Of a stretch of DNA of 64,000 bases, positions 9,069 to 61,851 are shown one piece after another. The DNA comes from Octopus vulgaris (lineage: Eukaryota): contig OX597831.1 in assembly GCA_951406725.2 (NCBI GenBank), positions 14,942,001 to 15,006,000 on the forward strand, written 5' to 3'. The translations under genes were made by a program, and so were the position numbers. How positions within the stretch are numbered: the first letter of the stretch is position 1; each line of letters starts with the position of its first letter. The notes under the pieces were generated by a model that was not told the DNA's origin, made no database searches, and was given only the letters and a program-made list of their open reading frames with translations.

Positions 9069-9130
9069 CATTGAATGGTACTGCCAAGGTGCCGAAACCG
9101 TAATGATACCCGTGGGACAGCTGATGATGG
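9069..9130 (+). ncRNA. Non-circularly permuted hammerhead ribozyme candidate
   Basis: CATTGAATGGTA^CTGCC-AAGGTG-CC-GAAA-CCGTAATG..GGACAG-CTGATGA-T-GG; stems III, I and II pair only in crossed order. Confidence 0.7.
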
Positions 9131-11339
9131 AGGTATGTTGGATTGTACGTATTGCTGTTTTTGCATATGTAGAATAGTGTTAGAATACATCGTTTTGATA
9201 TATCTACATACGACTATGTATATTAGAACCTCGATCAGCACGATGTGAACTTGTAGCTTGAATAGCAATACATTTATTGACGAGCGTCATCTCAAAGTCA
9301 AAAACGACTTTGTAACAATCATGTTAACTAAAGACATTTTCTCAGTTGCCAGATTCAATATATCGATCAACTGTTCATAAGCGAAGAAACATTTCGAGGC
9401 TAGATAGTGAATACTTGAAGAATTATTGACTTTTACTTTGATATCACATGAAGCTCTGAGACTGCTAAACTGAGGATCATATTCCTTAATAAAGACGTAG
9501 AAGAGAAACACACACATGCCCCATATAAATACACACACACACACACACACACACACACACACACACACACACACACACAAACGTATATATATATATATAT
9601 ATATATATATATATATAGATGTGTGTTTTTTCCCTTGATAAAAATTAACAGAAAAAATAGAAAGTTACCAGGGTAGCAAAAAATCACACAAGTAAAAAGG
9701 TTGTAACTCCTTTTTAAAGTTAGAATCTTCGTGTTTACGTGAAATTTTTTTTATAATATATAATGTAAACGGAGTTAAACGCTAGTTATATTTCATTACA
9801 AATTCTTCCTTCTCTAAAAAAGTCCCTTGAAGAAGTAACATCGTAGTTCTTCACAGTCGTCGTCGTCATGATCATCATCATGATCATCATTATCAATAAC
9901 AACAACCTCGTTGTAGTCGTGGATGTGGCAATATTCTTCTTCTTCTTCTTCTTCTTCTTCTTCTTCTTCTTCTTCTTCTTCTCGATCTTTTTCAGTCTAT
10001 CTATCCATACATCTCTCCCCTCTCTCTCTCCCTCTCTCTCTCCCTCTCTCTCTCTGAAAAAATATATGTCTATACTTATATAAATACATATATGTATATG
10101 TGAGTGTATGAGCATACACACATACACACACACACACAGCACTCTCATATATATACATACACGTACCTCTAAATATACATATATATGTATAGTTATACTT
10201 AATTCTATTATATAAGTATATATATATATATATATATATATATATATATATATATATATATATATGCAATGTTACTCGTCATATGACGATTTCCGATGAA
10301 ACACATTGTATATTTTTACCACCTGAAGTTATATCAGCAAATACGATATGCATAAAATAGATATAATTTTACTTTTATCAAATTTCTTGCTGTTTATACA
10401 AAACGATGAAAAGAATGTTAATTTTCCAAAGAAAAGATATACGTTCTCTTACAATAAAATTACACAAACTACACACGTCTTCGTTTCACTTCCTGAGGAG
10501 ATCAAATTTATCTTTTTACTTTACTTAGTTTTTGGTTTGATTTTGAATCCCAGAGTTCTTAAAGCAAAACATGAAAGGCGTTTCTTGTTTTCTCTTGTTT
10601 TTGTTAACACTACCAACATTGTTTTGCGTAAATATGTGAGTACTGTGTGTGTGTGTGTGTGTGTGTGTGTGTGTGTGTGTGTGTGTATGTGTGTGTGTGT
10701 GTGTAAGAAAGAGATCGAGAAATATTCTGAGTGTGTTTGTAGGTGTCAACTTCCGTGATATATAATCACCACGGATGAATCTTGTCTACCATTATATATT
10801 TTACTTTCACTATTTCAATACAAACTAGAAATTGAAGCGGAAAATGTCTTTTTCGCAATAATGTGTGTCCTAAGTTACTTCCACTATATTCTTAGATCTA
10901 TGTGCTATTTAGAATTTGAAAATTGTTAGTCTGTTACACACAGCAATTAATGTCGTTCGTTTCACACATGTATGTATATAATTATCTGCCATAATTAATC
11001 TTACAGATTTTTTCTCTTCTCCTCCCTTTTCTCCTCTGTTCTTTTTTCAGATTCTTATTCCTTTCCTCTGCATATAAACCTTTTTTTTTAATTATACCCT
11101 ACTTCAAAGCCTAGTATTTCTACTCTTCCTGCAACACTTATATTAACTCTTTCTGTATCGCGTTTCTTATCTCTCTCCATCTCCATACAATTAAAACTGC
11201 CACTGGAGTTTTATAAAAAAGAACCCAGCATTTCGACAATTACACATTCATATACACAAACACGCATGCACTCACTCACACACAACACCCAACACACAGA
11301 CACACAAGCACGCACATACACATGCACACATACGGATGC

Positions 11340-11612
11340 TTGACCTTATTTTTAAAGCCTGATACTTTTATCGAACCGCTATGTTGTGGGGACGGTACCG
11401 ATTGTTAAATGGCGGTGGGGGCTGAACGCCGACACAGAACTACACGTAGACGCATGCAAATATATATATATAAGACGGGCTTCTTTCACTTTCCGTCTAC
11501 CAAATCCACTCTCAAGTCTTTAGTCGCTCCGAAACTATAGTAGAAGCCAAATGCCGAAGGATCCACGCAGTGGCACTAACCCACAAACTGGCTGGCTGGG
11601 AAGCAAGCCACT
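11340..11612 (-). mobile_element. SINE family A, degenerate
   Basis: GACGGGCTTCTTTCACTTTCCGTCTACCAAATCCACTC..CCACGCAGTGG. Confidence 0.75.
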
Positions 11613-11730
11613 TTGCACTAACACACACACACATATATATATAGGGAGAATTCACAAAACAAAAAGTCGAAGACAGATGGTGTAGACAACGAGCAGATGT
11701 ATTAGTTTAAGGCTCAGGAAGTGAAAAAGT

Positions 11731-11765
11731 CTTAACGTTTCGAGCCCCCGCTTTTCCACAGAAAG
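11731..11765 (-). ncRNA. Minimal hammerhead variant CUGUNGA (A6U), degenerate
   Basis: Minus: CTTT-CTGTGGA-A-AAGCGGGGGCTC-GAAAC-GTT-AAG; inside a repeat starting at the (TA)n at 11641. Confidence 0.5.
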
Positions 11766-12196
11766 GAACACAGAAAGAAACAAGGAAAGAAAATGCAGAA
11801 TGTGTAGTGGCTAGCGACACACACACACACGCGCACATGTATATATATTTAATAGTGTAGGTATTTTCGGTTTCTATAGAGATTTAATAATACTAGACAA
11901 ATTTACCGCAATGGAAAGCGGAAAACTCAATATATATCTTGTACAAGCATTGCAGTGAATCTTCTAGATATTACTATACATTACATAATTGTATGTATAT
12001 TTATAGACACACCTGTACGTACACATGCACAGATAAATGCTTATGAGTGAGACTGGTGATGTTATTCTCGTCTGTTGTTCTTTAGGTCGATTCTGTCATT
12101 ATATTTCAAATGCGTGGAAAACCATTTCACTTAAACAGTACCAGGGCGTCGGTGATAAATTAGGTTATCGTCTCCCTAAAGAAGGATCAATACTTA

Positions 12197-60724: not shown

Positions 60725-60760
60725 CTTTAACGTTTCGAGCCTACGCTCTTCCACAGAAAG
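60725..60760 (-). ncRNA. Minimal hammerhead variant CUGUNGA (A6U)
   Basis: Minus: CTTT-CTGTGGA-A-GAGC-GTAG-GCTC-GAAAC-GTT-AAAG. Confidence 0.7.
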
Positions 60761-60849
60761 GAACACAGAATATCCGTCTAAATTTCATTGTGAGTGGTTT
60801 TTTTTTTTGTTTTGTAGATGGTTTTATTTATGTATTTTAATGATTATTT

Positions 60850-61620
60850 CTATGTCTTTTTCAGATCGTAAAATATAAGCCTTGATGTGTGACCACATTG
60901 AGTTTGAAATTCTCGAATGGCGGGATCTTCCGTCACCAGTAAAGTTGGACTTGGTTTTTCGGGATCTACCAAGTGAAGGACCATCACTGAATTTGAGAAG
61001 CAGAGCAAAACCTTTCAGTAGGTGGCGTATGTCCGCCAAGACTTCGGAGCTCACTAAAAGTGATCGACGAGTGTTGATTCGCCTGACAACTTGAGTCCCA
61101 AAAGTGACTAGAGAGTTGAATCAGCATTTAACTAGCCCAGTGTCGATCGAAACTGTTCGCCCTGCGATTAATAAAGCCGGGTATCATGGAGGAGCTGCCA
61201 TCAGGAAACCTCTACTTTCTTATCAAAATATTTATAAAAGGCTGACCCGGTGAAGTGACCATAAGGGCTGGTCGGCAGAACAATTGAAGGAAGTAATAAT
61301 CTTTGCGGAGTCCAGTTTATCTCTTTTACCCAATGCAGGGTGAGATTATGTGTGGAGGCATCCCAGGGATGTTTTTAATCCTGACTGTCTTCTTCCTACA
61401 GTGAAGAACTAAGGAGAGTCTGTGATGGTTTGAGCTGCCATTTCTTGGAATTCTTTTGGTTCAACCGAAGCACTGCTTGGTAGGATCAACAGCGATGATT
61501 ATCTGAATATTTTTGGAAATTAAGCACTTCTCATTGTCCAGACATTATTTCCTGATGGTGAGTGCAGCTTCCAAGATGACAACGCTACAATACATAGCTC
61601 TCATATGGTTAAGAATTGTT
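60850..61620 (+). mobile_element. Tc1-like transposase remnant, 3'-truncated
   Basis: LTKSDRRVL..PVSIETVR..AIRKPLL..DYVWRHP..CLLPTVKN*GESVMV*AAISW..FQDDNATIH, with several stops. Confidence 0.9.
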
Positions 61621-61785
61621 ACGTATATACATACATACATACATACATACATATATATATATATATATATACATATATATATATATATATATATATATGT
61701 ATGTATGTATATAATACAAAATGGGACAAGAACGCACAACATCCAGACAGTTTGTTGATACAAAAGGGGACAACAGAACGTCCCC

Positions 61786-61851
61786 ACTTCTTCATCAGTT
61801 ATAGGTCACAGGGTCAAATGCAATTTCATGGCTTTAACGATAATATTGATT
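61786..61851 (-). ncRNA. Degenerate non-circularly permuted hammerhead candidate
   Basis: Minus: AATCAATA^TTAT-CGTTAAAGCCAT-GAAA-TTGCATT..ATAA-CTGATGA-A-GAAGT; stems III and I pair, stem II decayed. Confidence 0.55.

Follow-up and report, generated by a model that had tools for sequence, protein, structure and literature searches.

A split-core variant of the non-circularly permuted hammerhead ribozyme, predicted at the 3′ ends of Naiad and other Penelope-like repeats of Octopus vulgaris

Background

The closest described relatives of the motif considered here are the non-circularly permuted hammerhead ribozymes of types SGC and CSG, the small hammerheads of Penelope-like elements and the Naiad elements; the motif itself lies at five loci (9069+, 37177-, 45601+, 47628+ and 61786-) of a stretch of 64,000 nucleotides (nt) of Octopus vulgaris DNA (assembly GCA_951406725.2, contig OX597831.1, positions 14,942,001 to 15,006,000, forward strand), called the window below.

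Type SGC comprises 583 sequences, five of which cut in vitro, and type CSG is represented by 5 listed sequences, 2 of them tested, with published rates for the two types of 0.004-0.19 per min (Eckert et al. 2023, PMC10085705). We compared the order of the hammerhead blocks in the window with these type names, in which S is the site block, G is GAAA and C is CUGAnGA. The octopus motif shares with type SGC (HRIMA-1 and the SGC variants) the site-GAAA-CUGAnGA order, a full core, a short linker between stems I and II, a helix joining the far ends of these stems and several pseudoknots. The block order itself was therefore already known, and the sequence-only reading of the window, which called it A-C-B, was right that such orders had been reported before. 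The difference lies in stem II, whose 5′ strand directly follows CUGAnGA in type SGC, whereas in the octopus motif it stands upstream, with two further helices, Y and H, between A9 and G10.1. Since PMC10085705 assumes CUGAnGA and its flanking strands to be one unbroken block, a motif split at this point falls outside its six types. With type CSG the motif shares the cyclic block order and the position of the stem I-II helix, and the split form is the CSG circle opened between A9 and G10.1; type CSG, however, keeps CUGAnGA and stem II contiguous and has neither Y nor H. Soil, spruce and freshwater RNA are the listed sources of the SGC variants, and 'octopus' and 'metazoa' gave 0 matches in the accessible supplement of that paper.

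The minimal type I hammerheads of Penelope-like elements and non-LTR retrozymes also lie in a terminal repeat and also begin stem II with G10.1-C11.1, and the retrozymes are likewise short non-autonomous tandem units (PMC4209133; bioRxiv 10.64898/2026.07.22.740005). They differ in their circular CUGAnGA-GAAA-site order, in a stem III that is tiny, in the one base added after A9 and in that they likely act as dimers. Naiad elements were reported to have no canonical hammerhead, with eight 'half cores' flagged, among them those of Naiad_Ovul and Naiad_Esco (Craig et al. 2021, PMC8557442); we read these half cores as complete, rearranged hammerheads. What the octopus repeats share with Naiads is, in one family (F9, below), an N-terminal GIY-YIG endonuclease, a DKA motif and a C-terminal reverse transcriptase (RT), and, more widely, (TA)n insertion, 5′ truncation and tandem and inverted partial copies, although four of the five octopus families are, unlike Naiads, short units for which no coding partner was found.

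Our literature search, which did not extend to subscription papers, found no report of a split-core hammerhead or of a permuted Naiad hammerhead. Hammerhead variants with additional helices are mentioned in PMC13725137 with three citations, two of which were identified here; no split core or four-way junction was seen in the accessible parts of Perreault 2011 (PMC3088659) and Forgia 2023 (PMC10162972), and the 2026 retrozyme preprint (bioRxiv 10.64898/2026.07.22.740005) mentions Naiad, in its accessible part, only as present in a coral.

Judged by sequence comparison, the octopus motif is a new variant of the non-circularly permuted hammerhead, with a real and well-supported structure and with predicted cleavage. 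Precisely, we consider it probable that these are 3′ ends of Penelope-like repeats which hold all the hammerhead core bases in a self-cutting fold opened between A9 and G10.1.

Hammerhead core and pairing of the stems

In four of the loci (9069+, 37177-, 45601+ and 61786-) the S-G-C order was confirmed in the sequence, with a valid NUH triplet in each, as had been claimed: GUA at 9078-80, AUA at 37236-34, AUC at 45604-06 and AUA at 61846-44. The gap between GAAA and CUGAnGA, put earlier at 23-26 nt, measured 23 nt for the CUGAnGA starting at 9121+, 25 nt at 37188-, 24 nt at 45651+, 25 nt at 61798- and 26 nt at 47662+. A loose descriptor gave 4 S-G-C matches in the window, whereas 50 shuffles averaged 0.16 and none exceeded 2, and Rfam at the gathering score gave 0 matches at the window loci. 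The proposal that the loci are dispersed repeats held, and that of a single family did not: they belong to five separate repeat families, F9, F37, F45, F47 and F61.

We grouped 244 distinct matches into 43 clusters and took the 10 clusters with at least 3 members as subfamily majorities. The hammerhead core (CUGAnGA, GAAA and NUH with A15.1-U16.1) is present in 10/10 of them; the core search admitted only H other than G in NUH. Over these majorities stem I is Watson-Crick paired at 34/35 positions (null 17.6) and stem III at 45/50 (null 25.2), which bears out the covariation proposed for both. In the window the two stems pair as described earlier, except that the gap placed in stem I of the 9069 copy is a C-A mismatch. 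The copy at 47628+, described as truncated, had its lost site block restored by full-length F47 relatives (CGUGU-U-CUGUCC upstream) with perfect stem III (5/5) and stem I (6/6), a result that tests the block order blind. Between stems I and II the linker is short, as stated before (1-5 nt where the stems are intact), and usually differs from UUAA.

Stem II is where the present fold departs from the sequence-only reading, which had built it from the run after CUGAnGA. That assignment corresponds to an ordinary type-SGC hammerhead having a one-base bulge in stem II, in which the upstream helices would be an inactive alternative fold or a switch. Over the 10 majorities the run is Watson-Crick paired as stem II at 13/45 positions, under the null of 15.7 and with no covariation, and allowing up to 5 inserted bases gave 26 vs a null of 27.1. 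In F37 and F47 it yields, at 0-1 nt of insertion, 4 base pairs (bp) that include wobbles; the other three families, F9, F45 and F61, give 0-2 bp. The run pairs instead with an upstream strand, Y′, at 32/45 positions (null 19.7), forming helix Y. Another upstream strand, X, is Watson-Crick paired with the strand before GAAA at 38/45 positions (null 20.0); with X re-optimised in the null the figures are 43/50 vs 30.5, a value reached in 0/20,000 shuffles, though the relatedness of the subfamilies makes such shuffle p-values overstate independence.

X lies ~22-27 nt upstream of the cut site and 35-43 nt before G12, and forms 5-6 Watson-Crick pairs that always start with G10.1-C11.1. Its sequence and that of the stem II 3′ strand change together: four family majorities have GAGCA/UGCUC, GGCUG/CAGCC, GAAGG/CCUUC and GACACC/GGUGUC, individual copies of F61 have GUGCC/GGCAC, and other loci have, as further distinct perfect pairs, GGCCG/CGGCC, GAACG/CGUUC, GAGCG/CGCUC, GCGCU/AGCGC, GACGC/GCGUC, GGGCA/UGCCC and GCCCA/UGGGC. 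Among the first 70 pattern loci, taken unfiltered, X was perfect in 22 and the local stem II in 0, against 2/840 control windows. In 20 fresh loci, chosen by core sequence after the model had been fixed, X was perfect in 9 and the local stem in 0 (control 1/200), and where the site block of the fresh loci was intact the counts were 8/10 vs 0/10. In hammerheads A9 connects to G10.1 directly or by way of 1-2 extra bases; a perfect local stem II was found in 0/90 pattern loci, even with up to 5 inserted bases, vs 31/90 with a perfect upstream X, and the local stem II has 0 bp in F45.

Some observations do agree with an ordinary SGC hammerhead: a 4-bp, G-U-rich local stem II can form in F47 (230/231 cells paired, 111 of them Watson-Crick) and in some F37 copies, that at 37177 among them; Penelope-type hammerheads typically have a one-base bulge here (PMC4209133), and hammerheads with a 1-bp helix II or none still cut, slowly (PMC13725137). 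Against it stand the counts above and the position of a further helix, Z, which starts one base after X in 6/10 subfamilies and fits a stem I-II link if X is stem II. We regard the ordinary SGC fold as quite unlikely; by the pairing counts, the 5′ strand of stem II is X, upstream of the site block, and not the run after CUGAnGA.

Layout of the motif and its further helices

The whole motif reads Y′-hairpin H-X-Z-stem III-NUH-stem I-short linker-stem II-GAAA-stem III-Z′-stem I-CUGAnGA-Y. This layout adds three helices to the fold read earlier, namely Y, the hairpin H and Z, which links stems I and II; at the level of sequence the six helices, the core bases and the repeat context are established. 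In the window the parts lie as follows.

45530-45673 (+): F45 motif, the best-preserved split-core copy in the window
45530-45546, 45547-45584 and 45585-45589 (+): F45 upstream parts Y′, hairpin H and X (stem II 5′ strand)
45604-45606 and 45607-45612 (+): F45 site block, NUH (predicted cut after 45606) and stem I 5′ strand
45618-45622, 45623-45626, 45651-45657 and 45658-45673 (+): F45 downstream parts, stem II 3′ strand, GAAA, CUGAAGA and Y
37176-37299 (-): F37 motif
37299-37293, 37292-37259 and 37258-37254 (-): F37 upstream parts Y′, H and X (one mismatch in the window copy)
37236-37234, 37222-37218, 37217-37214, 37188-37182 and 37181-37176 (-): F37 core parts, NUH, stem II 3′ strand, GAAA, CUGAUGA and Y
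9028-9137 (+): F9 motif, decayed, with H 9038-9058, X 9059-9064 and NUH 9078-9080
9088-9093, 9094-9097, 9121-9127 and from 9128 (+): F9 downstream parts, stem II 3′ strand, GAAA, CUGAUGA and Y
61773-61855 (-): F61 motif, with NUH 61846-61844, GAAA 61827-61824 and CUGAUGA 61798-61792
47632-47635 and 47662-47668 (+): GAAA and CUGAUGA of the F47 copy, whose site block, X, H and Y′ are lost

The F45 copy at 45601+ keeps X, stem I and stem III intact, with 5/5 Watson-Crick pairs in stem II through X, 5 in stem III, 6 in stem I and 0 bp from the run after CUGAAGA. The copies at 37177- and 9069+ have one mismatch each in stem II through X; a 4-bp local stem II is also possible in the former, and the latter belongs to a family whose majority is perfect (stem II 6/6, stem I 6/6, stem III 5/5). 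The 61786 copy has U at 11.1 and is truncated just 5′ of the site block, with X, H and Y′ gone. Most of the window copies are decayed, and assays on the proposed 65-nt spans would therefore be made without stem II.

Y′, H and X adjoin one another without intervening bases in F47, F37 and several other subfamilies, where Y directly follows A9. Helix Z is formed by the strand that follows X and the one that precedes stem I; it has 5-8 leading pairs in 8/10 majorities and in most of them stops 0-2 bases short of stem I, and its position is that of the SGC/CSG stem I-II helix, if X is stem II. At least four sequence types of Z are paired (CUAGU/ACUAG, CUAGC/GCUAG, CCGGU/ACCGG and CUGGU/ACCAG). We collected 58 distinct F47 copies by a 3′-side pattern and counted as shared any variant present in at least 3 of them: Z has 5/5 pairs in 39/58 copies, and shared variants fell at 0/7 tested core sites, 1/8 other stem II sites and 16/21 unpaired sites. 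H in F47 shows two-sided changes at 3/13 pairs, and nested folding recovered H and Y in 5/10 majorities. A kink-turn in the loop between Z and stem III was considered and rejected, the pattern being present in only 3/10 subfamilies.

A share of F37 copies (for example window 37181-37176 -, L184 and L195) has AGAGUC for AGGGUC after the core, by which Y becomes weaker and the local stem II stronger, with X intact. Such copies may possibly take both folds.

Abundance and repeat families

We searched the whole genome (2.8 Gb, 227 contigs) with exact core patterns. CGAAA-N21-27-CTGATGA gave 13,193 matches vs 981 for the reversed control, and the same pattern with A, C or G at N7 gave 23,468 vs 4,165, that is, with N7 free, 36,661 vs 5,146, or ~31,500 above control. 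For scale, the canonical order CTGATGA-N8-30-CGAAAC gave 13,148 matches vs 820. The exact split-core pattern occurs at ~1 per 90 kb, so the window is richer than the genome average.

First-look candidates numbered 763 for F37, 826 for F45, 1082 for F9, 162 for F61 and 1728 for F47, of which 40 were scored per family. Their common 3′ end lies ~60-130 nt behind the motif, at (TA)n, and the copies show 5′ truncation, partial tandems, inverted 5′-truncated copies and (TA)n targets, the behaviour of Penelope-like elements. All five loci are 3′ ends of dispersed Penelope-like repeats:

45472-45731 (+): 5′-truncated F45 repeat copy, ending at a (TA)n/(CA)n run, with 84-90% identity to other copies
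37055-37383 (-): 5′-truncated F37 copy, with its end at (TA)n; the non-coding unit of this repeat measures ~720 nt where it stands in tandem
8877-9200 (+): 5′-truncated 3′ end of a Naiad Penelope-like element (family F9), read by eye as the terminal part of the octopus Naiad consensi in print
47628-47909 (+): 5′-truncated F47 copy (~780-nt non-coding tandem unit), with 95% identity to L127
61653-61778 (-): F45-type 3′ terminal segment behind the F61 motif, with 85% identity to L044

The last of these makes the F61 locus a chimera or a nested insertion. Repeat-finder output on the window was dominated by microsatellites.

F37, F47 and F61 are 720-800 nt non-coding units in tandem, seen at L111/L127, L029, L339 and L347. 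This arrangement would also suit pairing between two tandem units or two molecules, which would spare some of the pseudoknots in the manner of dimeric Penelope-type hammerheads, and the metazoan ones have been proposed to act as dimers (PMC4209133). Here, however, stem III has 5 bp plus the Z extension, not a palindrome of 1-2 bp, all pairing partners lie within ~100-125 nt, and the published SGC and CSG forms cut in cis (PMC10085705); we consider pairing between units very unlikely and favour a single-unit fold.

The non-coding F47 and F37 units (L113, L127, L029 and L006) start with a splice-donor-like CCAAGTAAGT, followed by a pyrimidine-rich stretch. We take this 5′ start to resemble the 5′-UTR (untranslated region) intron of Penelope. 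That intron is described in PMC8557442.

Relation to Naiad elements

The link to Naiad and Penelope-like elements was absent from the sequence-only reading. Walking upstream from F9 we reached RT remnants, and at many loci the F9 core lies 0.7-1.8 kb behind such remnants on the same strand, up to 2.5 kb in longer stretches. One locus (L278) holds an endonuclease remnant, DKA and RT in this order and another (L293) DKA, RT and the F9 motif; no single copy examined holds endonuclease, DKA, RT and F9 motif together. The F9-linked RT matched Pfam RVT_1 at E=2e-4, below the Pfam cut-off, and a Pfam search with a 141-amino-acid piece of the RT gave no match. The published Naiad 3′ ends (supplement of PMC8557442) were read by eye, in part, and the consensus 3′ ends of Naiad_Obim and Naiad_Ovul correspond to F9, motif included. 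Going by these ends and by the endonuclease-DKA-RT order in the genome, F9 is the 3′ end of a Naiad element.

By the same reading by eye, the split layout occurs in other published Naiad 3′ ends, those of corals and squid among them: the three Acropora entries, four further entries in supplement parts 9, 12 (two) and 19, and Naiad_Esco, where stem II is imperfect. In the nematode part, six entries, including Naiad-1, -2 and -3_Nbra, have an intact type CSG with its extra helix. No such motif was seen by eye at the end of Naiad-1_Skow or of the incomplete Naiad_Adux. One 3′ end in supplement part 17 has yet another wiring, with long stems I and III, a stem II local between the site block and GAAA, and CUGACGA in a separate long helix.

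Should the motif cut in the predicted way, it is likely the ribozyme whose absence from Naiad retroelements had been assumed.

Predicted cleavage and origin

In the fold that we propose, Y, H, stem II and the sheared G12-A9 and A13-G8 pairs would form a four-way junction, with stem II stacked on the core and Y on H, and the short linker together with Z, as the stem I-II contact, would hold stems I and II side by side. The RNA would cut once, after NUH, ~100-170 nt from the element 3′ end, and cutting would trim tandem transcripts to unit length. Selection on master elements would keep the fold, while genomic copies such as the five loci decay. The A9-G10.1 backbone step appears to tolerate change, since Penelope-type hammerheads often carry one additional base behind A9 (PMC4209133). 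As to its origin, the form most likely arose by circular permutation, through tandem copies, of an intact type-CSG hammerhead such as those seen by eye in nematode Naiads, because reading from X to CUGAnGA across two tandem CSG copies gives exactly the split order.

A number of results weigh against this fold, its cutting or its generality. X is imperfect in 4/10 subfamily majorities (small clusters, both F61 clusters among them) and in 2/3 of the window copies that keep it; F45-like subfamilies have 1-2 unpaired junction bases beside Y; some F37 copies have a mismatch in Y and pair better in the local stem II; and ViennaRNA, which does not consider pseudoknots, gave competing long hairpins for F9, F37 and F61. 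A loose descriptor covering the six permutations, run on 40 evenly spaced 10-kb pieces (400 kb), gave 3 SGC matches, none of them convincing, vs 1.5 in shuffles. No open reading frame partner was found for F37, F45, F47 and F61 in the upstream regions of the copies examined, so that Naiad membership is demonstrated for F9 only; one F47 copy lies behind a Neptune-like frame, as a separate insertion. Finally, the 5′ ends of 90 F47 copies did not cluster at the predicted cut (2/90 within 3 nt), the peaks near -200 and -280 stemming from divergence from the reference, and in one Poseidon element cleavage required protein and was dispensable for in vitro insertion, mainly of uncut RNA (PMC11167929).

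The last two points, with the position of the motif at the 3′ end, where reverse transcription starts, are those expected if the fold were real and served mainly as an RT docking or priming site, with cutting absent, very slow or dependent on protein. Yet N7, N16.2, H17 and the stems vary, whereas every catalytic position is conserved. Kept catalytic positions amid variable stems are the pattern expected under selection for hammerhead catalysis, and we find a mainly docking role unlikely; a cutting hammerhead remains the preferred reading.

In the same F47 copies (L388-L477), 13/90 5′ ends fall 5-21 nt downstream of the predicted cut, around the stem II 3′ strand and GAAA. They perhaps reflect stalling of the reverse transcriptase at the fold.

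Other features of the window and of related elements

Besides the split-core loci, we noted the following features.

41949-41993 (+) and 41632-41588 (-): two back-to-back minimal Penelope-type hammerheads of canonical order, flanking ACT/TAA microsatellites, with one extra base after A9 and a tiny stem III
44323-45461: 1.1-kb TTA microsatellite, directly 5′ of the F45 copy
54698-55108: G-rich minisatellite with a 22-nt unit in 18.7 copies
2606-3220 (+): 205-amino-acid open frame, which we take to resemble the C-terminal end of a LINE (long interspersed element) reverse transcriptase

The family of the two canonical-order hammerheads dominates the 13,148 canonical-order matches. Elsewhere in the genome (L283-L289 and L315-L317) there is a young Neptune-like Penelope family with an intact 753-amino-acid RT and GIY-YIG frame and a frame of 340-380 amino acids upstream; in its 3′ region a hammerhead core was found in neither order, only a hairpin and then GAAA.

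Conclusions

Taking the proposal in its widest form, we lean, with some reserve, towards a hammerhead class beyond the six published permutations, with a predicted cis-active four-way junction and more than 30,000 copies in one animal genome, which would be the standard 3′ ribozyme of many Naiads and have a type-CSG sister in the Naiads of nematodes. If this is true, the working rule that the CUGAnGA block cannot be interrupted would be overturned, and non-circular permutations, so far represented by a few hundred sequences from the environment, would rank among the most common structured RNAs in the genome of an animal. The open end at A9/G10.1 would be a ready insertion point for ribozyme switches. 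The step from CSG to the split form would offer a natural series for the origin of such permutations through tandem copies, and the apparent spread of Naiads in the absence of a hammerhead would receive an explanation that can be tested.

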